Shown here one piece after another: positions 1-21,318 of a stretch of DNA of 34,738 nt. The stretch covers positions 1 to 34,738 of the forward strand of contig JBHJGN010000065.1 of the NCBI GenBank assembly GCA_050331735.1, in the 5' to 3' direction. Position 1 is the first letter of the stretch, and each line of letters starts with the position of its first letter. The notes under the pieces are model-generated. The model saw only the letters and a program-made list of their open reading frames with translations. It was not told where the DNA came from and searched no databases. This DNA is from Cyanophyceae cyanobacterium. Lineage in GTDB: Bacteria > Cyanobacteriota > Cyanobacteriia > Cyanobacteriales > JBHJGN01. A program made the translations under genes and the position numbers.

Positions 1-145
1 GAAGTCAAAGAAGTCCCTTAAAGCGAGGAAGCCACAGTTTCACAACTATCATCAAGCTAGAAAAAGGTATGCTATCAAGCATCTCAAGATAAGTAGGCAG
101 CGTAAAGACCATGCGGTGAAACTAGCAAGGTGCGTCGTCACCTAG
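1..145 (+). pseudogene. tnpB: Internal fragment of an IS200/IS605-family TnpB, truncated
   Basis: Frame from nt 2 reads ...PQFHNYHQARKRYAIKHLKISRQRKDHAVKLARCVVT*, which resembles the cyanobacterial TnpB segment just before 'NDLVAYEDL'. It ends at TAG 143-145. Not in the ORF track. Confidence 0.75.
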
Positions 146-251
146 AACCCACATTCCGCAGGTAAATCAAGAAAGGAGATAATATCGGCGGCAAGGAGAA
201 CCGAGAAACTGAAGAATATGGCTTCGCTCGGAAGTAAGATTACTAATTTGT

Positions 252-937
252 TTAAGGTGGCTGGGACTCTTGAGAGCCATCTGAGAAACTGCATTTGTTG
301 GCGATTCTCTTGAGTGTCAAGAGCGGCATCGGCGACAAAAAGGGCATCAACATCCCACTGTTGCCGAAACTCTTTGAAGAGCTGGGCAAAAACAGCACGT
401 TCTGATTCATTGCCATCGGCTACCCGCAGATACAAGGGCACATCCCCGTCTGCGCTACACATCAAATCGACGATAAATTGTTTCAAGTCGGGTCGATGAT
501 CTCTTGAATAACCATAGGTAATTTGAATCGCTTTTGATTGAGTTTCTGCTGAACGGACGACTCGCGCACCGGAACCAAGTTCCGGTGTCGCGTCCTCCTC
601 TTCATCGTCAGCGGATTCTCCATCGACATGAAATGAACTTGAATCGAGATGTACACTCTTCGTTTCTACGCCTAGCTTTTGAGCCGCAGCGAGGGCGACT
701 GCTACGAAGACGCGGGTTAATCCGGCTTCAAACAGTTTGTCTAATACTCTTCCCAGACAGTCATCGTTTAGATGCTCTGGATGGATTCCTTCCCCTAATA
801 AATGTTCGGTAGCTTTGCCGCTGAAAAATCGACTGAATAAGTAGAGTGGCGCACTGACCATCCCTCATCCATTGATAATCATCGCTTTGATTGCTTGACC
901 AGGAGTGACAATTTGATGATGATGCACTCCTAAGCAT
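252..937 (-). mobile_element. IS1634-family transposase remnant, truncated at both ends, with internal stop
   Basis: Motifs LGVHHHQIVTPGQAIKAMIING*GMVSAPLYLF, HLNDD.LGRVLDKL, HLDSSSFHV, ITYGYSRDHRPDLKQF, FVADAAL and WLSRVPATL. TGA at 865-867 interrupts the frame. Similarity is lost near 252 and near 937. Confidence 0.88.
553..597 (+). repeat. 43-45 bp hairpin element, copy 1 (in-frame insert in the IS1634 transposase)
   Basis: acggacgactcgcgCACCGGAACcaaGTTCCGGTGtcgcgtcc (553-595), collinear with 2561-2603. It encodes about 15 extra residues (DATPELGSGARVVRS) on the minus strand. Confidence 0.85.
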
Positions 938-1649
938 CGCCTCGTGCAGCGTTTACTGGGGCGATTTCGGACGCAGGGCTTTATCCATGACGAGCTAAGT
1001 CGGGCTTGCGTCTGCCGCACCACCGATGCTGTGCTCAAGGTGCTGGTTTTTGGGCGACTGTCCCTGTACGCTGAGGGAGCTAGTCGGTTACACGACGAGG
1101 TGTTGTGCGTCGCGGCGGAGTGGCGCGAGCCAGAACTTCGTGCGGGAGGGACATTACGACCCTTAGAGGCTGCTGCCGAGTCAAAGGCGATCGCCGCGTT
1201 GAATGCAGCCCTAGTTACGCCGCGCTTGCAGGTTAGCGAGGGCGATCCGCTAATAGCCAAGCTCAAAGCTGGCGTGACGATAGACATTACCGATTTATTG
1301 CCTCACTTGGAGGCGAAATCTCAAGAGCGCCAAGAAACGGCTGAACAAGACCTCAAGGAACGAGGGAAACGGGAGGCTGACAGGTATGCGCGAGTTACTC
1401 AAGCGTCAGCGCAAGCGCATCGCCGAGCAGTATCACGGGCAGGATTTGAAGGTTGTGCAGCTCGAACTCAACCTCAATGATAAGGAGTCTCGCCAGGTGG
1501 AAGCTGATCGCCGTTACTGGGAACGCCGTCTCGATCAGCTCGAAACCGAAATTGAAACAGAACCAGAGCGCATTCGTCAGATGTATGCCGTGAAAGCGAG
1601 TCGGATAGAGCCAATCGGTGTTGCTTATCTTTGGCCGATTAGTTTTTAG
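935..1649 (+). pseudogene. drmD: C-terminal part of a DISARM DrmD-like SNF2 helicase, 5'-truncated and frameshifted
   Basis: HRLVQRLLGRF..QGF.HDELSRAC, FGRLSLY..GASRLHDE, then after a frameshift near 1380-1386 MRELLKRQRKRI...EPERIRQMYAVKASRIEPIGVAYLWP. It lies directly upstream of the methyltransferase, as in class 1 DISARM. Confidence 0.8.
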
Positions 1650-1958
1650 TTTTTATTTCTTAGTTCGATCAACTCGTTAGAGCCTGAATCCAGAGTTTGT
1701 CTTACTCACAGGTTAGTCAATCTGAACACTACACCCTAACCCCTGTCCCTTATGTCTATTGATCGCTCCCATCAGTATCTTTTGCAGCAGCACCGCGACT
1801 GGCTCGGTGAAATTCAGCCTGTTGGTCTTGTCGTCGCTCCGATCGCCCTCGCCAATGCAGGAGTTCAGCTTGAGCGCGCTCGCACTCTCGTCGAAGCGCA
1901 GGCGACTTTGCGGGAGTTCGTTACAACAGAGGTACGGGGAGGAATTGCTGACGACCAA

Positions 1959-1979
1959 ACGGACAACTCACGGTACGGA
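1959..1979 (+). repeat. Half copy of the 43-45 bp hairpin element at a frameshift/deletion junction
   Basis: acggacaactcacggtacgga matches the first 21 nt of copies 1 and 2 (acggacRRctcRcg..ccgga), then switches abruptly to methyltransferase coding sequence. Confidence 0.65.
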
Positions 1980-2560
1980 TTTGTTAGAGCCAGAGGCAGA
2001 ACTGCGAGTATCTCTACCAGAGTATGGCGAGACGCTGGAGCCAACTTATGTAGTAATGAATTCTTTACAGACACGGGAAACGCCCTTGCTGTTGGTCAAA
2101 GTAGAGCCTGTGGGGACGAATCTGGAGCGCAAATCTAATCATGAGGGTTGGTCAGCAACGCCTCAAGAGAAATTTGAGCGACTGCTGCGGGAAACGGGAG
2201 TGGATATTGGTTTGTTGTTCAATGGGGCAGAATTGCGGTTGGTGTATGCTCCACGAGGCGAGGCTTCTGGGTATCTAACTTTTGAGATCGCAGCAATGAC
2301 GGAAGTGGCGGGGCGATCGCTGCTGGGGGCGATGCTAATATTGCTCAATGGGGAATCGTTGTTTATCCAAAATCCTGAGTTTGCTGCTAAACGCCTGCCG
2401 AAGCTATTAGTTGATAGCCGACAGGCGCAAAATACGGTCACGGAGCAGCTATCAGAACAGGTATTGGATGCGCTATGGGAACTGTTGCGCGGGATTCAGT
2501 CTGCGGACGCAGATGTAAAGGGGCAAGTGCTAGGGGATTTAGGAACGACTGACCCGCAGC

Positions 2561-2605
2561 ACGGACAGCTCACGTGCCGGAACCAAGTTCCGGCACCGTG
2601 TCCTT
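2561..2605 (+). repeat. 43-45 bp hairpin element, copy 2 (in-frame insert in the methyltransferase)
   Basis: acggacagctcacGTGCCGGAACcaaGTTCCGGCACcgtgtcc. Removing the 45 bp 2561-2605 restores gac ccg cag cat att tat ggg = DPQHIYG. Confidence 0.88.
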
Positions 2606-2922
2606 ATATTTATGGGGGCTTGGTAACGGCGCTGATGCGGCTGGTGTTTTTACTCTACGCTGAGGAGCGCAACGTCATGCCGAATGATGACCTCTATCAG
2701 CGCAATTATTCGGTAGTGGGGCTGTACGAGAAGCTGCGTCAGGATGCGGGCAATCATCCCGATACGATAGATCGGCGCTACGGCGCTTGGGCGTCGCTGT
2801 TAAGCTTGTTTCGCTTGGTTTATGACGGCGGCGGGGCGACTCCTGATTATCTCCCGGCGCGGGACGGGCAGTTGTTCGACCCGGACGAGTACCCGTTTTT
2901 GGAAGGGCGAAAGCAGAGCGAT

Positions 2923-2949
2923 AACCCCTTCGGGGATGGCTTCGCTTAC
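2923..2949. repeat. 27 bp SDR-like insert splitting a HIP1 site
   Basis: GCGAT|aaccccttcggggatggcttcgcttac|CGC. Excision restores GCGATCGC and keeps the frame. It contains two TTCG-loop mini-hairpins. Confidence 0.7.
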
Positions 2950-5798
2950 CGCTACTGTAAATGCGGTGAGGACGGCAAGCCAATCTTAAGCGATCGCGGC
3001 GAACGGATTCCGATTCCGGTGGAGAATGCCCCCCGCGTCCCGGACGGGAAAGTGTTCCGGGTTCTCGATCGCCTGTTGATAGTGAACGGCGAACGGCTGA
3101 CCTATCGGGCGCTGGACGTGGAGCATATTGGCTCGGTGTACGAAGGCATTATGGGGGATGAGGTGGAACGGGCGGCAGCGCTATCAATTGCGGTGACGAG
3201 TAAGCCCAGTGGCTCAAAGGTGTCGGTTCCGGTAGTGGTGAATTTAGAGGCATTACTGGCAGCACAGCCTGGGAAGCGCAAGCAGTTACTAAAAGACTGG
3301 GCAAACTGCGAGATTTCGGCGGGGATTAATAAAGAACTCAAAGCAGCCACTTCTATTGATGAGATAGTGGCGGCGTTGGGTCGCAAGGTATCTCCGAAAA
3401 CGCCTAACCCGCTACCGCCAGGAGCGCTCTATCTCCAGCCAGGGGAGGAACGGCGAAGCTGCGCCCAATTTGGAAACGGCTAGGGGAAAATCCGACGGCA
3501 GAGCAGATTTTAGAGTTGAAGGTGTGCGATTTGGCAATGGGCAGCGGCGCATTTTTGGTAGAAGCCTGTCGTCAGATTGCCGATCGCCTGCTGGAGAGTT
3601 GGGAGAGGTATGGATGCGATATAGATGAAACCGTCGATCGCGTATTGGCAGCGCGGCGGTTAGTGGCACAGCGCTGTTTGTACGGGGTGGATAAAAACCC
3701 GTTTGCGGTCAATTTGGCAAAGCTGTCGCTGTGGTTGTTTACCTTAGCAAAGGAGCGTCCGTTTACGTTTCTCGACCACGCGCTCAAGTGTGGGGATTCC
3801 TTGGTAGGGCTGACTCGTAAAGAAATTGGCTCGTTCGCCCCCGATCCGATCGCAGAGTTACCCTTGATGGCGCTGCTGAAAGCACAGGTCGATCGGGCAA
3901 AGTCCGGCACGAACAGAAATTCAGGCGGCAGATGTGGCAACAGATGCGGATGATACGAGAAAGCGATCACAACTACGAGAGGCGGAGGCGGAGATAGAAT
4001 CGGCGCGGTTGCTGGCAGATGTGCAGATCGCCGCGTTTTTTGAGGGAGGGACGACGGCAACGCAGCGCAATGAGAAACGCAAAGAGTTTGCCGAGTTGGT
4101 ACAGTTACAGCGAAATTCTGGGGATACTTCCGGGCTGGAGGCGATATCGAAGCGGTTACGCAGTGGCGATCGCACCGTTATGCCTTTCAACTGGGAAGTG
4201 GAGTTTCCAGAAGTGTTTGACCGCGAAAATCCTGGGTTTGATGCCATTGTCGGCAATCCACCCTTTGCTGGGAAAAATACGATTACAGCAGGTAATGCTG
4301 AGGGATATTTGCACTATCTCAAAGAAAGCTATCCTGAGTCTCATGGTAACTCCGATTTAGTCGCTTATTTCTTCCGTCGTGCGTTTAATTTATCGCGGCA
4401 GTCGGGAACGTTGGGCTTAATTGCGACAAACACCATTGCTCAAGGCGATACGCGATCGACGGGGTTACGCTACATCTGCAAGCAGGGAGGCACGATTTAC
4501 AACGCCAAAAAGCGCCAGAAATGGACTGGACTCGCGGCAGTTGTGGTCAGTGTTTTGCAAATTGTCAAAGGTGAGTATTCAGGGAAAAAGACGTTAGACG
4601 ATCGCCCAGTAGATTATATTTCGGCGTTTCTGTTTAATTCCCAGAACAATGACGATCCGAAAACTTTAATTGCTAATGCGGGGAAAAGTTTCATTGGTAG
4701 CTATGTCCTTGGCATGGGTTTCACGTTCGATGATTCCAACCCAGACGCGACACCGATTGCAGAAATGCACCGTTTGATTGAAAAAGATCCGCGAAATAAA
4801 GAAAGAATTTTTCCCTACATTGGCGGTGAGGAAGTTAACAGTAGCCCGACTCACGCACATCATCGCTACGTAATTAACTTTGGCGAGATGAGTGAAGATG
4901 AGGCGCGAAAGTGGGCTGATTTAATGGCGATCGTTGAAGAGAAAGTAAAGCCACAGAGGCTAAGACAAAATCGTGAAATTCGTAAGCGTTATTGGTGGCG
5001 ATTTGGAGAACCTACACCAGCTTTGTTTAAAGCGATCGCCCATTGCGATCGAGTTTTAGTCTGTACTTTACACGCTCCTTATCTCTCGTTTACCTTTTTA
5101 CCTGCTAACAGCGTCTTTTCCCATGCGTTAGCTATTTTCCCCCTCGAAACTAATTCAGCCTTTGTCCTACTCCAATCCAGTCCTCACGAACTTTGGGCAC
5201 GATTCCTCGGCTCATCCATGAAAGATGACTTGCGCTACACTCCCTCATCTTGCTTTGAAACCTTCCCCTTCCCCAAAAACTGGGAAGACAACACCGATCT
5301 TGAAGCGATAGGAGAAACCTACTACGAATTCCGCGCCGACCTGATGGTTAAAAACAATGAAGGACTCACCGCTACCTATAACCGCTTCCACGATCCTGCC
5401 GAAACCGATCCCGAAATCCTGACCCTGCGCGATCTCCACAGCAAAATGGATGATGCCGTCCTCGCCGCCTACGGATGGCAAGACCTCGACACCACTTGCG
5501 GATTTGCCCTCGACTACCTCGACCTTGACGAAGAAGCGATCCAACAGCTTCCCACCGAACTCCAAGTCCGTATTTACACTAATGACCTTTGGTTCCCCAA
5601 CCCTACCGAAGCCGTCTATTTTGATGTGACGGTTAGACAAACTACTAGCAGCAGACGCAAACTTCCCTGGCGCTACCGTTGGACTGACGAAACCCGCGAC
5701 ATCATTCTTGCTAAGCTATTGGATCTCAATCAGCAGCGCTACGAGGAAGAATTGCGGGGAATTAGTTCTTAGCTAAAATTTAGTTCAATTAATTGGTG

Positions 5799-5825
5799 TG
5801 ACACTATTATGTCATAATGGTGTCA
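5799..5825. promoter_or_regulatory. Inverted repeat, putative TA operator overlapping a -10-like element
   Basis: TGACACTATTATG-t-CATAATGGTGTCA (13 bp arms, 1 mismatch) directly upstream of the AGGAGG RBS of the antitoxin. Confidence 0.6.
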
Positions 5826-5841
5826 TGACGAGGAGGAAGTG

Positions 5842-6129
5842 ATGAAATTTATTACAGCTAGAGAGATCCGGCAGCTAAACAGCAAGGTTTGGTCTGAAGA
5901 CCAGAGAGAGCCGGTTGTTTATGCCCCTAACGGGAAACCGGAAGCGCTAATTTATCCAGTGGATGAAGACAATTTCGACCTTATCTTAAGAGCCACAAGA
6001 AAAGCCGTGGCGATCGCCTCAGTTCAAGCCATGCAGGAGCAGTCGTTGAAGCAGGGAACGGATCAGTTGACGAACCAAGAAATTGAGGCTGAAATTCAGG
6101 CTGTACGGCGCGATCGCGAGTCATCTTGA
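5842..6129 (+). CDS. Phd/YefM-like antitoxin
   Basis: MKFITAREIRQLNSKVW...EPVVYAPNGKPEALI resembles a Phd N-terminus. AGGAGG RBS. Overlaps the PIN gene by 4 nt (TTGA). Confidence 0.75.
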   Translation: MKFITAREIRQLNSKVWSEDQREPVVYAPNGKPEALIYPVDEDNFDLILRATRKAVAIASVQAMQEQSLKQGTDQLTNQEIEAEIQAVRRDRESS

Positions 6130-6527
6130 AAATTGTGCTCGACACCAATATCCTTGTCTCTGCCCTACTCAATGCTAGGTCAGTGCCAGCACAGGTGTTC
6201 AATTTGGTGCAAAACGACCAAGTTCAGGCTTATAGTGACGTGAGGATTTTGGATGAATACAGGAGCGTACTTTTACGTCCAAAATTTGGTTTCGCTCGAT
6301 CGCTTGTCGATGGAGCCTTGTTTCACTTTGAGGAGTTCATCGTGTCTCCACCCCCTCTCACTGAATCTTTGCCAGACGAAGACGATCATCCTTTTTTAGA
6401 AGTAGCTCTTCACGTTGAGGCGGGTTATCTAGTGACGGGTAATCTTGCCCACTTCCCGAAAGAGAAATGCGCTCCAGTTAAGCCGATTAGCCCAAGAGAG
6501 TTCTTAGACATTTTCAGAAATAGTTGA
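6126..6527 (+). CDS. PIN-domain (PIN_3/VapC-like) toxin
   Basis: IVLDTNILVSAL, ILDEY, DEDDHPFLEVA and LVTGNLAHF show the acidic PIN motifs. Confidence 0.9.
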   Translation: MKIVLDTNILVSALLNARSVPAQVFNLVQNDQVQAYSDVRILDEYRSVLLRPKFGFARSLVDGALFHFEEFIVSPPPLTESLPDEDDHPFLEVALHVEAGYLVTGNLAHFPKEKCAPVKPISPREFLDIFRNS

Positions 6528-6575
6528 AATCTTCAAGATGCTAAACTCTCTAAACCAAAAAACTAAGAACTAACA

Positions 6576-6893
6576 ATGTCTCCCCTTGAAACCCTTACAA
6601 CTAAACAAAATCGTCTGGCTGAATTTTGCCAAAAATGGCAAATCGTTCAACTCGCCTGTTTTGGTTCCGTCCTTCGTGACGACTTTCGACCAGATAGCGA
6701 CATCGATCTGCTTGTCGATTTTGCTCCGAGGGCAAATCTTGGTCTGCTTGACTTCATTCGACTTGAAAACGAACTGTCTGCACTTCTCGGTCGCCCCGTA
6801 GATCTGGTCGAAAAGAGTGCTGTTGAAACCAGTCCTAATTGGATACGCCGCACTGAAATTCTCAACACTGCCCAAGTCATTTATGCTACGTGA
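6576..6893 (+). CDS. Minimal nucleotidyltransferase (MNT) antitoxin
   Basis: FGSVLRDDFRPDSDIDLLV (GSX10DXD) and GRPVDLV. Confidence 0.92.
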   Translation: MSPLETLTTKQNRLAEFCQKWQIVQLACFGSVLRDDFRPDSDIDLLVDFAPRANLGLLDFIRLENELSALLGRPVDLVEKSAVETSPNWIRRTEILNTAQVIYAT

Positions 6894-7227
6894 CGAAGCT
6901 ACCTTACTGGACATTGATCGCTATGCTCGCGCTATTCTTAGCTTTACCGAAAATCTCGATCGCAAGAGCTTTGATAATGACCCAAAAACTCAAGCCGCTG
7001 TCTTGTACAACCTTTCTATAATTGGCGAAGCCGTCAAACGTCTATCCCCTAGCTTCTGCGAACAACACCCAACTATTCCTTGGTCTGATATTGCCAAAAT
7101 GCGGGACAAAGTTATTCACCATTACGACCGCATCAAACTTGATATCATCTGGAACACGATTTATCAGGACATTCCTAGCCTCATTGCCGCTATTTCTCCC
7201 CTACTGCCTGACGATCCCTCAATCTAG
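6883..7227 (+). CDS. HEPN/DUF86 RNase toxin
   Basis: ATG at 6883 overlaps the MNT end. IIGEAVKRLS and IPWSDIAKMRDKVIHHY (RX4HXY). Confidence 0.92.
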   Translation: MLRDEATLLDIDRYARAILSFTENLDRKSFDNDPKTQAAVLYNLSIIGEAVKRLSPSFCEQHPTIPWSDIAKMRDKVIHHYDRIKLDIIWNTIYQDIPSLIAAISPLLPDDPSI

Positions 7228-7388
7228 ATAGTCTGTTCAAACCCAACAAAGTCAAATTTAGCGATCACATAACTGCGTAGCACTCCGGTACTCAGGCATA
7301 ATATTATCGGCTACCAATGTAATGCTGTTTCCTGAAAGTTCAAAGCGGAAAGCTCTCCTAAACTGGCGCAAATGCAAGGAATATTGCT

Positions 7389-7592
7389 ATGAAAGCGGTT
7401 ATCTCTCGGAAGTTGTCTATTGTACTCGCTAGCGAAACTGGTCGTCGCCAGCTTGGGTCAATGCTTGCCAGGGGAGAGTATGGCGGAACGGTCAAGGCTG
7501 ACGGTAAAACCTACCGAGTTGTTGCTTTAAGAGGCACGCATCGGCGGACTAAAAGAGTGTTTCCTGTAGAGTTTGCAAAGAAAGAAAACTAA
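7389..7592 (+). CDS. Small basic hypothetical protein (67 aa)
   Basis: ATG preceded by AAGGA, on the same strand as the island genes. No recognised motif. Confidence 0.5.
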   Translation: MKAVISRKLSIVLASETGRRQLGSMLARGEYGGTVKADGKTYRVVALRGTHRRTKRVFPVEFAKKEN

Positions 7593-7815
7593 GCTTCAGC
7601 ATTACACAGTTGAGGGACAGTGTTTTGTTGTTCGATATAGCTCCGTTAAAACCCTTAATATTGAATACTTTGAAATAGAAGAAGCTTGATTTAGACTGCC
7701 TAAAATATCTGTGAATCATCTCAGGACTAGCAGTTAAGATATTTTGCCAGCGAACATTCGGTAATTTTTCGGTTGAGGATTGCCAATCTGGGGAATAAAA
7801 TGGCTGGCTACTAGC

Positions 7816-7860
7816 GAGGACGCGGGGGGCGAAGTGAGTTCGTCCCCTTCAGTCGTTCGT
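7816..7860 (-). repeat. 43-45 bp hairpin element, copy 3 (inverted, diverged inner stem)
   Basis: gaggacgcg-GGGGGCGAA-gtgag-TTCGTCCCC-ttc-agtcgttcgt. Same length and nearly the same termini as the reverse complement of copy 1 (gaggacgcg-acaccggaa-cttgg-ttccggtgc-gcg-agtcgtccgt). Confidence 0.75.
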
Positions 7861-7921
7861 TTGGCAGGGAAGCCACCAGCTAAAAGCTGCAATACTGCCG
7901 CTATCTCTCTCCTACTGCCCA

Positions 7922-10037
7922 ATGTCCCCTCAATCTAGACAATCTGCCAAAATCCGCGACGAACTGATCGATGCCCTCCGCCTCGATCTCATCGGTCCTA
8001 CCCCCGATGATACTCTCCACGATGATGAAGAACTCGATCGCGAACCGAGTCGCTGGTATCTCTCCGGTTTCCTCGTTCCCTACGAAGCCAAATTTAGCGA
8101 TCGCACTGACCCCACCGCCGACGATGAAGTTAACAGTCCTATCGAAGACAAAAGCGACGACGATCCGGTTCCAGAATCAAACTCTGCCCGTAAAGTTAGC
8201 TTCCCCTCCTCAATGGGGCTGAGTTTCCTCGTCAGTACCGACACTACTCAACTCGAAGTAACCGTTACCTGGGGCGACTACGAACCCCGATCGCAAGATA
8301 GCGATACCCCAGAAGCAACACCCGCCACCGACAAAAGCCGTAACTCCCTGCGGAACGATGCGATCTGGTGTCGAATCCCCCGCCGCGAACCCCTCACCGT
8401 CGATATCCCTAACCGCAGCAAACCTCGATCGATAGAAATTCCTAACAGTGGGGGACTCCAGCTTGTTATCTCCGTCAGCCCCGTCTCCCAAATTAGCCAT
8501 CTCCCTGCCGGAACCCGTACCGTCTCACTCTTCCTAGTCAATCACCGCCTGCCTGCCGAAGGGGAAAGCCGCGATCGCGCCTATGCTTCTCAAACCGCTC
8601 TAACGGTTCGCAGCCGCACCAGTTTTATCCCCCGTCCCGATCCGCGAGGACGCGACACCCAAGACCGCGACGAAGGCATCGCCTACCTGCAATACCGCGA
8701 TTCCTATGAATTTGCCGTTGGTCATAACGTTTCTGCCTGGGACGAAAGGAGTGGCGATCGCTGCACCACCATCGGCACTACCTGGATTCCCCGCGCCGCA
8801 TCCGAAAATTGTTGCCTCCACCGCCACCGTTCGCCGGGCAGAGTCCCAGATTCAAGCCCTTTTTGGGCGCACCCAAGTCGATATTTTCCCGCCTCCTGGA
8901 CCGAACCGCCGCGATTCCTTCTTTGCTCTCACCGCCCCAGTTGCAGAACGTAACCCGCGTACCTACCTCGGTATTGCCGCTCAGGGTCGCAGCTTAAAGG
9001 TGGTGCTGTTGAGGGTCTATCTCGCTCTGCTCGGAGCCGTACAGAAAGCCTGGGAACGAGAAGGCGGCAAGAGAAACCTTAAAAATCCTGCCGATCCCTA
9101 TATGACGCTACTTGGTTACTTTAATGCCCTGCGGGAGCTAGGCGGCAGCCGTCGCATAGTAGAAGATGAAATCAACGCTCGCTTGCAGAATTACGGCAAC
9201 CGCATCCGCCTTGACGAAGCTGAAGGCAGTTTCGCCAATCGCACGATCGCCAATGAACCTGTCGAACTCACCTCCCGCGTTAGCACCGACCGGGTAGCAA
9301 AAGCCAAGCACCGTCTATCGTTAACCTTTGACAATTGCGATCGCGTTGATGTTGCCCTCGCTACCAACATGATTTCCGTTGGTCTGGATATCGATCGCCT
9401 GGGGTTGATGGTCGTCCTCGGTCAACCGAAAACGGCTGCCGAATATATTCAAAGTACCAGCCGCGTCGGTCGAGATGAAACTCGCCCTGGGCTCGTTGTG
9501 ACTCTGCTTAACGTGCATCGTCCCCGCGATCGCTCCCACTACGAACACTTCACCGCATGGCATGATGCTTTTTATCGCGCGGTTGAAGCTACGAGCGTCA
9601 CGCCATTTTCCCCTCGCGCTCTCGATCGCGGTCTAGCCGGAGTCACGGTTGCCTTAGCCCGTCTTAGCTGTTCTCATCTAACGCCAGCCTTAGCCGCCGC
9701 CAACATAGTTGAGCACCGCGACGAACTAGAGTTTGTGGCAGAATCGCTAGGCGATCGGGCGGTTTCTCATCAAAAAAACCTAGATCGGTCGAGTGAATCC
9801 TGGCTTCGCTTTCAGGTTGTGGGTCAGACCAAACATTTGCTCGATAAATGGAAAAACGAAGCCGAAGAACGGGGCAAACTCCAGTATCAGCGTGAGGAAG
9901 GAGGCGCAAATCCTCTCCTGCGCGACCCTCTCGACCCGGAAGAGAAAGGACACAAACTCTTTAAGGCTCAGCGCAGCCTCCGCGATGTCGAGCCAACCGT
10001 TAACCTCTGGCTGAAAAAACCAGAAGATATTGACTAA
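7922..10037 (+). pseudogene. drmA: DISARM DrmA-like SF2 helicase with the central ATPase domain deleted
   Basis: N-terminal IRDELIDALRLDLIGP...PSRWYLSGFL...YEFAVGHNVS...TTWIP is fused out of frame near 8797 to PKIVASTATVRRA...ATNMISVGLDIDRLGLM..GQPKTAAEYIQSTSRVGR (helicase C-terminal motifs). No Walker A or DExH motif is present. Confidence 0.88.
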
Positions 10038-21111: not shown

Positions 21112-21318
21112 AAAGAAGTCGAGCGATTGTTGTTTTTCACGACGCGCCTATTTCTTGGCGGAGAGGCTCATTATTGATACTAATTGGAAAAAAGAATGAG
21201 AGACTTAAATAGTTGGGAAAAGGGGAACGGCAAGCACAGCTAATCTTTCCCCTCTAACCTCCAACTCTTTGCTAGTTTGAGAAACTCTCTGACTAATTTC
21301 GGTAACTGATATGAGCTC

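Follow-up and report, generated by a model that had tools for sequence, protein, structure and literature searches.

What moves very small mobile repeats, such as the small dispersed repeats (SDRs) of cyanobacteria, the Rickettsia palindromic elements (RPEs) and many unnamed hairpins, is a long-standing puzzle. SDR1-8, which were described in Nostoc punctiforme and its relatives (Nostocaceae), are reportedly 21-27 nt in length, while RPEs are about 100-150 bp in length. The IS200/IS605 insertion sequences move by 'peel and paste', a single-strand, strand-specific and hairpin-dependent process, which involves a 5'-phosphotyrosine, excises seamlessly and leaves no duplication, and which relies on a distinct hairpin at each of the two ends, left and right, and on a target of 4-5 fixed nucleotides. 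According to passages of PMC3733652, where RPEs are also mentioned, the REP, BIME and REPIN repeats end on one side in a GTAG or CGTC tag, lie outside genes and are found on either side of a RAYT gene.

The window, which here denotes the whole stretch of 34,738 nt of cyanobacterial DNA that was analysed, carries copies of an element that is almost certainly mobile and structured, and that can be described as non-autonomous DNA of exactly 45 nt without coding capacity (Table 1). An earlier note on this DNA had listed three cores of 43 bp, lying in a transposase gene, a methyltransferase gene and intergenic DNA, and all three were recovered at its coordinates and in these hosts, but the true unit is 45 nt, as its ends are fixed by exact empty sites. 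A half copy, which had been placed at 1959-1979, is present as well, with its extent reduced to a partial insert of 16 nt (1959-1974), the first 14 nt of which are identical to the 5' end of a copy on contig C31. The claim that 9 of 43 positions distinguish copy 1 from copy 2, each by a transition and several of them in compensatory pairs, also held. All of the 6 copies collected first could be aligned over 45 columns without gaps, and a copy identical to copy 1 over 46 nt is located on contig C16 between unrelated flanks. The predicted fold has an energy of -24.5 kcal/mol and a z of -4.0 in copy 1 and a z of -4.7 in copy 2; copy 3 has kept its ends and scores 52.5-52.7 bits with the covariance model, while the sequence of its inner stem has diverged and pairs only partially (z -1.2).

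Table 1. Copies of the 45-nt element in the window and the genes in which they lie
Feature	Position	Strand	State, context or evidence
Truncated IS1634-family transposase gene, host of copy 1	142..861	-	Pfam (DUF4277 and start of DDE domain); tblastn matches among annotated IS1634 transposases of cyanobacterial plasmids
Copy 1 of the 45-nt element	553..597	+	Intact; antisense within IS1634-family transposase remnant
MmeI-like type IIG restriction-modification gene, containing copy 2 and the partial copy	1752..5772	+	ORF list; Pfam MmeI_N, Eco57I, MmeI_Mtase, MmeI_TRD
Partial copy, 16 nt	1959..1974	+	5' constant part only; at frame shift of MmeI-like gene
Copy 2 of the 45-nt element	2561..2605	+	Intact; sense, in frame in MmeI-like type IIG methylase gene
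Copy 3 of the 45-nt element	7816..7860	-	Decayed; intergenic DNA

Insertion of the element is precise, occurs in either orientation and leaves no target duplication. Alignment of host genes with their orthologs, which had been put forward as a way to find empty sites, provided them for both proteins and DNA. Exactly the 15 residues of copy 2 are absent in 120 of 120 homologues of its MmeI-like host, and the variable acidic linker to which copy 1 contributes 15 codons is 13-15 aa longer in its host than in the IS1634 transposases of Nostoc and Planktothrix. At the DNA level, two transposon families have both states, namely an IS1634-like transposon, which is empty at loci L163, L167 and L174 and filled with exactly 45 bp at L114, and an IS4-like transposon, which is empty at L186 and L184 and filled at L046 and L177. 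As well, the MmeI-like gene is split into at least three frames, whereas its homologues are single proteins of about 1300-1400 aa; at the partial copy, frame A (from 1752) corresponds to homologue residues 1-59 and frame B starts from residue 73, and removing the 16 nt unites the two frames. A flanking direct repeat of at least 3 nt was found at 0 of 133 sites, in agreement with the missing target-site duplication reported before. A one-base duplication was considered, as in the three resolved full-length events the element is followed by the same base with which it begins, but it was rejected as a rule because this applies to only 50 of the 133 sites overall. Classification as a MITE was also rejected, since target-site duplications are missing, the three resolved events are exact 45-bp insertions, the size is 45 nt rather than 70-300 bp, and the arms covary rather than hold one sequence; moreover, no parent insertion sequence was found beside the copies.

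Since 45 is a multiple of three, the element survives within genes as 15 extra codons. Of the 133 catalogued copies, genic or not, 131 have a length of 45 nt, 64 of them coming from a search pattern fixed at 45 nt, and these counts, together with the exact 15-codon insertion relative to the 120 homologues, bear out the proposed length divisible by three. The covariance-model search recommended for further copies returned 13 in this genome (E <= 1e-4), and the recurrence of the element is far beyond chance. Long ORFs hold 8 of these 13 copies, and ORFs of at least 150 aa hold 26 of 73 catalogued copies. Inserts of 15 codons are present in transposases, restriction enzymes, kinases and other genes, which can mislead annotation, alignments and the calling of frameshifts. 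The element is often hosted by transposase genes and by other hairpins, and TnpB genes occur among the hosts.

Like SDRs, the element is a tiny gene-less cyanobacterial hairpin repeat, which is precisely inserted in genes and other repeats and has no known mobilising enzyme. It differs from them in its length of 45 nt, its two-stem fold and its constant ends, a distinction based on length and description, and its inner hairpin of 21-23 nt might be SDR-like. Whether this inner hairpin is a separate module was also considered, an idea that was dropped as only two hairpin-less remnants (the one in the window and one on contig C5) are available, which is too few. RPEs likewise insert in frame in coding genes, a shared behaviour rather than homology, but they are longer and belong to an unrelated phylum. 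Integron attC sites were rejected because the copies are solitary, lie inside genes without arrays and have ends unlike the attC core. An E-value scan of 11 loci against Rfam gave no family at the element, and the literature searched on small dispersed or mobile repeats and on in-frame hairpin MITEs in cyanobacteria contains neither a description of it nor either of two 14-nt motifs taken from it. Within Rfam and this literature the element still appears to be undescribed, as the earlier note had suspected, and an overlap with the SDR families may exist.

The sequence of the element is constrained to its fold, as had been proposed from the first copies. From the 5' end, the fold consists of two unpaired bases, an outer stem of 5 bp, a conserved 6x2 internal loop (6 nt on the 5' side and 2 nt on the 3' side), an inner stem of 10 bp with variable sequence and a triloop, and it closes with two unpaired bases at the 3' end. 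In 26 copies, pairing is kept in 94.1% of cells compared with 69.4% in shuffled controls, none of 500 shuffles equals it, and only 31-47% of cells pair in slid controls. Double-sided changes are found in 13 of 15 pairs in these 26 copies, so that both stems covary strongly. Such covariation is explained only by intramolecular pairing, and thus recognition must act on the element in single-stranded form. An RNA copy, reverse transcribed and integrated by the enzyme of a retron, a group II intron or an RT-Cas1 type system, would fit the covariation equally well, and reverse transcriptases are encoded in 4 of 5 carrier genomes tested; we regard this route as very unlikely, because no RVT_1 match was found in genome G038 (five copies, 99% completeness), the orientation relative to host genes is unbiased (15 sense and 11 antisense), all 133 catalogued copies are 45-46 nt long with both ends present (as the search patterns demanded), and the sole truncated copy retains the 5' part.

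The insertion is also strand-specific, favouring a cytosine four bases 5' of the junction, C(-4), followed by A/T-rich sequence. Compared with 0.21 in the background, C(-4) is present at 52 of 69 independent sites (p = 1e-21), was replicated at 38 of 64 new sites on metagenome contigs (p = 4e-11), and in the pooled set accounts for 90 of 133 independent sites (p = 1.6e-30), the other 43 having a different base. The preference recurs in each of three subtypes (69/100, 16/25 and 4/6), the left flanks of copies 1, 2 and 3 all carry C(-4), and both junctions of the partial copy read C-N-N-N. Positions -3 to -1 are near background, while the downstream side prefers A/C at +1, C at +3, A/T at +4 (A or T in 121 of 133 sites) and A at +5. 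C(-4) belongs to the target, as two of the three resolved events have it in the site that is still empty. We know of no report of such a strand-specific C(-4) signature for RPEs. Guide pairing between the internal loop and the target was rejected because the downstream motif is the same in subtypes with different loops.

Insertion sites also point to single-stranded targets, in that empty sites, when reconstructed, have a better fold than controls from nearby (Mann-Whitney p = 1e-4), the junction lies within the loop of a stem of at least 5 bp at 20 of 73 sites compared with 171 of 1105 controls (p = 0.009), and at locus L137 one copy sits inside the loop of another element. This favouring of pre-existing hairpins, together with the fact that palindromes provoke template switching, would suit an origin without any enzyme, in which template switching or gene conversion copies hairpins, or in which each site retains the motif for its function as a signal in RNA or DNA. 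Such an origin is the least probable of those considered here, since exact and identical ends recur at 133 unrelated sites lacking flanking homology, both orientations occur inside unrelated coding sequences and broken transposase genes, which local function does not predict, and no Rfam family matches.

At the other junction, the element has an invariant C in column 42, and its own 3' end always reads C-N-N-N, with the C four bases ahead of the last phosphodiester. This column is paired within the outer stem, and its invariance could be structural. The target C(-4) and this 3' C make both junctions C-N-N-N^ on one strand, and C(-4) is the sole strongly fixed base at both. What is new here is that the C(-4) target preference and the invariant C-N-N-N 3' end together match the cleavage rule of bacterial topoisomerase I, which acts on single-stranded DNA and selects a cytosine 4 nt 5' of the scissile phosphate, as stated in passages of PMC3467081. 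We thus propose, with a probability of roughly 40%, that the element is cut and pasted as a single strand by type IA topoisomerase chemistry. According to this proposal, single-stranded DNA would be cleaved 3' of C-N-N-N, with one end held in a 5'-phosphotyrosyl link and the other left as a free 3'-OH. The outer stem would juxtapose the two scissile phosphates, the donor could reseal exactly after excision, and the excised hairpin could then be joined to a second cleaved C-N-N-N^ site where the DNA is transiently unwound. The best candidate for the enzyme would be the housekeeping topoisomerase I (TopA) of the host itself, an assignment which we make more tentatively; equally tentatively, the element may be viewed as a transposon without a transposase of its own, moved as a single-stranded hairpin by TopA where transient unwinding exposes C-N-N-N^ sites.

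No movement of DNA segments by topoisomerase I is known, its link to the element comes from sequence statistics, and to our knowledge there is no precedent for transposition driven by topoisomerase IA; a search of the literature for a link between topoisomerases and mobile palindromes found none. It also weighs against the TopA reading that the enzyme is deduced from a one-base signature, that C(-4) is missing from 43 of the 133 sites, and that a type IA enzyme would need the outer stem melted to bind the column-42 C. As far as we know, the downstream preference at +1, +3, +4 and +5 is not an established preference of TopA.

The IS200/IS605 'peel and paste' process is the closest working model for a possible route of movement, and an HUH-type single-strand transposase or nickase acting in trans (IS200/IS605 TnpA, RAYT, or an IS91- or Rep-like enzyme) would account for several of the same features. 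Such enzymes also employ a 5'-phosphotyrosine, recognise hairpins and leave no duplication, which fits an element without target duplication, with strand-specific junctions, hairpin recognition and single-stranded loop targets. Moreover, this genome has several IS605-type tnpA/tnpB pairs, the element lies in or beside tnpA or tnpB at three loci, and 3 of 6 left flanks in the local CACAA subtype share their final four bases, a word that is a target of IS91 and resembles rolling-circle nick sites. An HUH enzyme is nevertheless an unlikely mover. Only one target base (-4) is fixed, in contrast to the specific tetra- or pentanucleotides of IS200/IS605, there is one composite hairpin instead of separate left-end and right-end hairpins, and the ends of the one resident IS605-type element compared, on contig C16, show no likeness to the element. 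TnpA does not co-occur with the element either: the Y1_Tnp domain (PF01797) occurs in 36 of 41 relatives whether or not they carry the element, most of the relatives (35/41) showing no element, and it was not detected in genome G034 (99% complete), which has the most copies (16), so that the Y1 transposase (TnpA/RAYT) suggested earlier as a co-occurring helper was not detected in every carrier genome. The same Y1 distribution separates the element from REP/RAYT systems, which it resembles as a short structured repeat, these being thought to be moved as a single strand by a tyrosine enzyme without target duplication; in addition, its termini are constant and lack a GTAG or CGTC tag, and 26 or more of 73 copies fall within long ORFs, whereas REPs are extragenic. 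The failure to detect Y1 or a reverse transcriptase in one present-day genome is compatible with past activity, as the copies may be relics. A search for Y2_Tnp gave no match even in control genomes.

Since no gene travels with the element, we infer that it is mobilised in trans. Its distribution is patchy and, among the genomes searched, limited to one cyanobacterial order, with carriers making up 6 of 41 relatives and 5 of 151 genomes in a phylum sample; records with the element come mainly from Pleurocapsales-type, Moorena, Coleofasciculaceae and related cyanobacteria. Mobile and defence DNA holds more copies than expected, and the copies are clustered, 4 pairs lying within 10 kb of each other compared with 0.25 expected (P = 0.0004). 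Both the patchiness across families of one order and the enrichment and clustering would fit a dedicated helper that moves horizontally, borne by a plasmid or phage or belonging to an unrecognised family, in which case the topoisomerase-like target preference would be coincidental. We consider this improbable, as no protein family except the host transposases recurs beside the element in 74 loci, a weak test given flanks of just 300-1500 nt. As for the proposed topoisomerase, a TopA domain was present in 40 of 41 relatives, and none of the carrier genomes tested was without it; TopA being universal, its presence in all carriers is weak support, and the confinement of the element to a few lineages is left unexplained. 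An extra type IA paralogue was rejected as a helper because it does not track the element and is present, among carriers, in G015 only, and a type IB topoisomerase was rejected as a general helper because, among the 41 genomes, it occurs in this one only.

The family offers a clean handle on the puzzle of very small repeats, since it combines exact ends, a fold proven by covariation, empty sites at the DNA level and a replicated strand-specific target signature that leads to a known chemistry. If the topoisomerase proposal is true, a housekeeping topoisomerase would drive an entire class of tiny bacterial elements that insert in frame, which would explain the missing helper genes of tiny mobile repeats in cyanobacteria and perhaps in other phyla, and would open a new route for genome change and protein-loop insertion in any bacterium.

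Finally, a second family with 17 copies, whose ends are not definable, is present in this genome, and a 48-nt element adjoins the 45-nt site in one transposon, where, as a single event, it fits the C-N-N-N rule in one orientation.

The 45-nt mobile hairpins form a low-copy family that is real and well defined, and they belong with the 'very small mobile repeats'. Three cores and a half copy are present in the window where an earlier note had placed them. That note gave the cores one common length of 43 bp; the common length holds, with a gap-free alignment over 45 columns of six first copies, half of them from the window and half from further contigs of the source genome, while 43 bp gives way to a unit of 45 nt, because exact empty sites fix the ends. 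Copies 1 and 2 differ, as had been described, at 9 of 43 positions, all of them transitions, which lie on opposite sides of predicted pairs. A copy on contig C16 of the source genome is identical to copy 1 over 46 nt and has unrelated flanks, which is difficult to account for unless the element moves. Copy 3 lies together with a 67-codon ORF in a segment of ~650 bp, flanked by a 60-nt direct repeat with 78% identity, and this segment resembles a cassette placed at a gene junction.

Coordinates of the hairpin copies and neighbouring features, in the window or on other contigs (C) of the source genome
Feature	Location	Strand	Remark
Copy 1	553-597	+	fold z -4.0 vs shuffles
Copy 2	2561-2605	+	fold z -4.7 vs shuffles
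Copy 3	7816-7860	-	decayed, fold z -1.2
Half copy	1959-1974		16 nt from the constant 5' part of the element
MmeI-like type IIG gene	1752-5772		breaks near 1960, 3483-3516 and 3934-3953
60-nt direct repeat	7185-7244 and 7896-7955		
67-codon ORF	7389-7592		
~110-nt repeat	21215-21312		
IS605-type element	C16:54323-56122		
tRNA-like gene	L021:1426-1502 (C98 ~4587-4663)	-	L021, catalogued locus
Type IB topoisomerase gene	C67:3659-4318		open frame 371 aa
topA	C67:28140-29438		
17-copy family, examples	C14:22060-22100, C59:8523-8565, C98:25212-25254		

The fold was derived from an alignment of 26 distinct copies from the source genome and five relatives, and has an outer stem of 5 bp and an inner stem of 10 bp closed by a triloop; between the stems lies an internal loop whose 5' and 3' sides have six and two bases, respectively, and two bases are free at either end. 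Pairing is found in 94.1% of 387 cells versus 69.4% in column shuffles, none of 500 shuffles being as high, and it falls to 31-47% when the partners are slid by 1-3 columns as a control. Changes on both sides occur in 13 of the 15 pairs, which, together with the pairing level, supports the earlier claim of covarying stems and selection on the fold; the two outermost G-C pairs are almost constant in pair type. The inner stem differs in sequence between nearly all copies, even in one genome, with pairing kept, and its top tends to pyrimidine-G-purine-A-purine. Four columns never vary: 42 (C), 44 (T) and, within the internal loop, a C on its 5' side and a G on its 3' side. Two main subtypes plus a local one differ at the internal loop. 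No Rfam family matches the element.

Exact insertion is documented by empty sites, which the proposed alignment of host genes to orthologs duly recovered. None of the 120 listed homologues (51-58% identity) of the MmeI-like host of copy 2 has the 15 extra residues seen in the window, and the conserved codons around this copy leave space for exactly 45 nt. Moreover, an IS1634-like transposon of Pleurocapsales-type genomes is represented by three empty copies and one with exactly 45 nt between the same bases, and an IS4-like transposon by two empty and two filled copies. Copy 1 sits within an IS1634-family transposase, in a linker that is variable and acidic. In Nostoc and Planktothrix homologues this linker is 13-15 residues shorter, which is consistent with insertion, although less cleanly than in the other events. 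Flanking direct repeats of at least 3 nt were found at 0 of 133 independent sites, in line with the lack of target-site duplication noted before. Five homologues of the MmeI-like protein (P0015, P0026, P0044, P0085 and P0097) have short glycine- and arginine-rich segments of their own, located a few residues before the site of copy 2; in many cyanobacteria, small insertions seem to accumulate in this loop.

The covariance-model search of this genome and its relatives, as the earlier note had suggested, uncovered further copies in both. A first model gave 18 matches in the source genome (5.57 Mb) at E <= 10, 10 of them full-length below E 1e-3, and 13 copies were counted there at E <= 1e-4. The copies are clustered, with four pairs no more than 10 kb apart versus 0.25 expected (P 0.0004). 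Within the same order, matches occur in 6 of 41 genomes including the source, the others all being from different families, and one carrier among the 41 has 13-16 copies. A phylum-wide sample gave matches in 5 of 151 genomes, all five from this order; none was found in the rest of the sample, which is not proof of absence. In a pattern scan over one genome per species, at least 50 hairpin-validated copies were obtained among the matches listed (at least 120 stretches). For 80 of these stretches, the records of validated copies bear cyanobacterial titles (Waterburya, Xenococcus, Pleurocapsa, Myxosarcina, Hyella, Moorena, Coleofasciculaceae, Baaleninema, Prochloraceae and other bins) with two exceptions, an 'uncultured bacterium' record and a Gracilibacteria-labelled bin whose 44-nt copy is outside the 50. 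Pattern matches in GC-rich non-cyanobacterial records were discarded as chance, the hairpin being absent.

In the source genome, 8 of the 13 copies lie in long ORFs, seven of them clearly within genes. The hosts of copy 1 (IS1634 transposase) and copy 2 (MmeI-like) are supported by Pfam, while the names of the remaining ones, a TnpB gene (C16 copy), a Uma2-like nuclease, a CHAT/TPR protein, a hybrid histidine kinase and one further protein, come from reading translations. The eighth copy occupies the 5' edge of a response-regulator ORF, probably upstream of the gene itself. At least 26 of 73 catalogued sites are in ORFs of at least 150 aa (15 sense, 11 antisense), a lower bound given the short flanks. 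Recurrent hosts are transposase genes (TnpB, TnpA, IS4-like and IS1634-like) with differing insertion positions, and besides these no protein family recurs next to the element among the catalogued loci. The tnpB holding the C16 copy belongs to an IS605-type element with divergent tnpA (Y1) and tnpB, whose end segments of ~140 nt recur on contigs C90, C5, C45 and C70. As well, a tRNA-like gene abuts the copy on contig C98 and overlaps its first two bases; ARAGORN assigns it to tRNA-Phe with the unusual anticodon AAA, and it scores 28.9 bits with the Rfam tRNA model versus a gathering score of 29.

The target-site rule is a new result of this analysis. With sites oriented by the element and inherited duplicates removed, 52 of 69 sites have C at -4, counted upstream from the left junction, versus a background of 0.21 (p 1e-21), and no other upstream position stands out. 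A weaker downstream motif consists of A or C at +1, T at +2, C at +3, A or T at +4 and A at +5. In a replication set of metagenome contigs (122 matches, 103 with the hairpin, yielding 64 new independent sites), C occupies -4 in 38 of 64 (p 4e-11) and A or T occupies +4 in 59 of 64; the pooled frequency of C(-4) is 90/133 (p 1.6e-30). C(-4) is kept in each subtype (69/100, 16/25 and 4/6) and is therefore independent of the internal loop of the element. In two of three resolved events the empty sites have this C before any insertion, and it is therefore a property of the target. The mirror-image signal is absent from the other strand, with G at +4 in 3 of 69 sites; the reaction is thus specific to one strand. 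The last four bases of the element always start with the invariant C of column 42; thus, both junctions read C-N-N-N^ on the same strand, with two bases between each of them and the outer stem. Compared with controls from the vicinity, reconstructed empty sites have more structure (p 1e-4), and 20 of the 73 sites place the junction in a hairpin loop versus 171 of 1105 controls (p 0.009); one copy lies in the loop of another. The replicated rule makes the mechanism of the element open to direct test.

Both ends of the 16-nt partial copy also fit the C-N-N-N^ rule. One frame of the methylase gene encodes the N-terminal 67 residues, and another, starting just past the half copy, encodes the remainder; the two become one once the 16 nt are omitted. 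The first break of this MmeI-like gene, which needs at least three frames, coincides with the partial element; its homologues are single proteins of 1300-1400 aa, and the gene in the window is probably a pseudogene.

Bacterial topoisomerase I forms a 5'-phosphotyrosine link. Passages of one source describe it as cutting single-stranded DNA with selectivity for cytosine at the fourth position 5' of the scissile phosphate, and note this selectivity for all characterised bacterial and archaeal topoisomerases I and reverse gyrases (PMC3467081). This cytosine is the one fixed base at both element junctions, and we infer that type IA topoisomerase chemistry may move the element. Two topoisomerase-type cleavages at the hairpin base, resolved crosswise, would give no duplication, exact ends, seamless empty sites, single-strand and loop targets and an A/T-rich 3' flank. 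The peel-and-paste pathway of IS200/IS605 parallels this proposed route.

The gene census is compatible with the topoisomerase reading, but weakly so. The TopA domain (type IA) is present in 40 of 41 relatives and all carriers tested, the one miss being a 61%-complete genome, and the distribution of an extra type IA paralogue does not follow that of the element. That an HUH enzyme moves the element is a serious rival reading, and in likely chemistry the element is similar to REP/RAYT and IS200/IS605. The co-occurrence with Y1 TnpA/RAYT that the earlier note wished to see checked breaks down in genome G034, which has 16 copies: Y1 transposase, found in 36 of 41 relatives, was not detected there. 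Likewise, reverse transcriptase was not detected in the five-copy genome G038. However, a helper gene undetected in a present-day genome leaves room for past helpers, and a helper of some other kind is also a serious rival. Against the topoisomerase reading, the signature is thin, being a single base, C(-4) is missing at a third of sites, the downstream motif has no explanation in it, column 42 is paired within the fold, and a patchy element is ill explained by a universal enzyme. Type IB topoisomerase occurs in the source genome only (1 of 41 genomes of the order searched); its poxvirus-like gene is on the same contig as topA.

The element behaves like Rickettsia palindromic elements and Nostoc small dispersed repeats (SDRs), the latter likened by description only. 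Of the features that define MITEs, REPs and IS200/IS605 derivatives, the element fails those that could be tested. No paper describing it was found in literature searches, whose reach did not extend to the Elhai SDR paper. The source genome also possesses a second structured micro-element family of 17 copies with a similar plan (outer stem, short internal loop, GC-rich inner hairpin) and an inner-hairpin top like that of the 45-nt family. A different, 48-nt hairpin is present in three IS1634-like transposon copies of genome G179 (L164, L166 and L170), 7 nt from the site filled by the 45-nt element in a sister copy; therefore, two families have each inserted into this one loop of the protein. 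Both junctions of the 48-nt hairpin read C-N-N-N in one orientation. Finally, a high-copy, MITE-like repeat of ~110 nt (80-98% identity) occurs in the window and at over 100 further positions, spread over most contigs of the genome.
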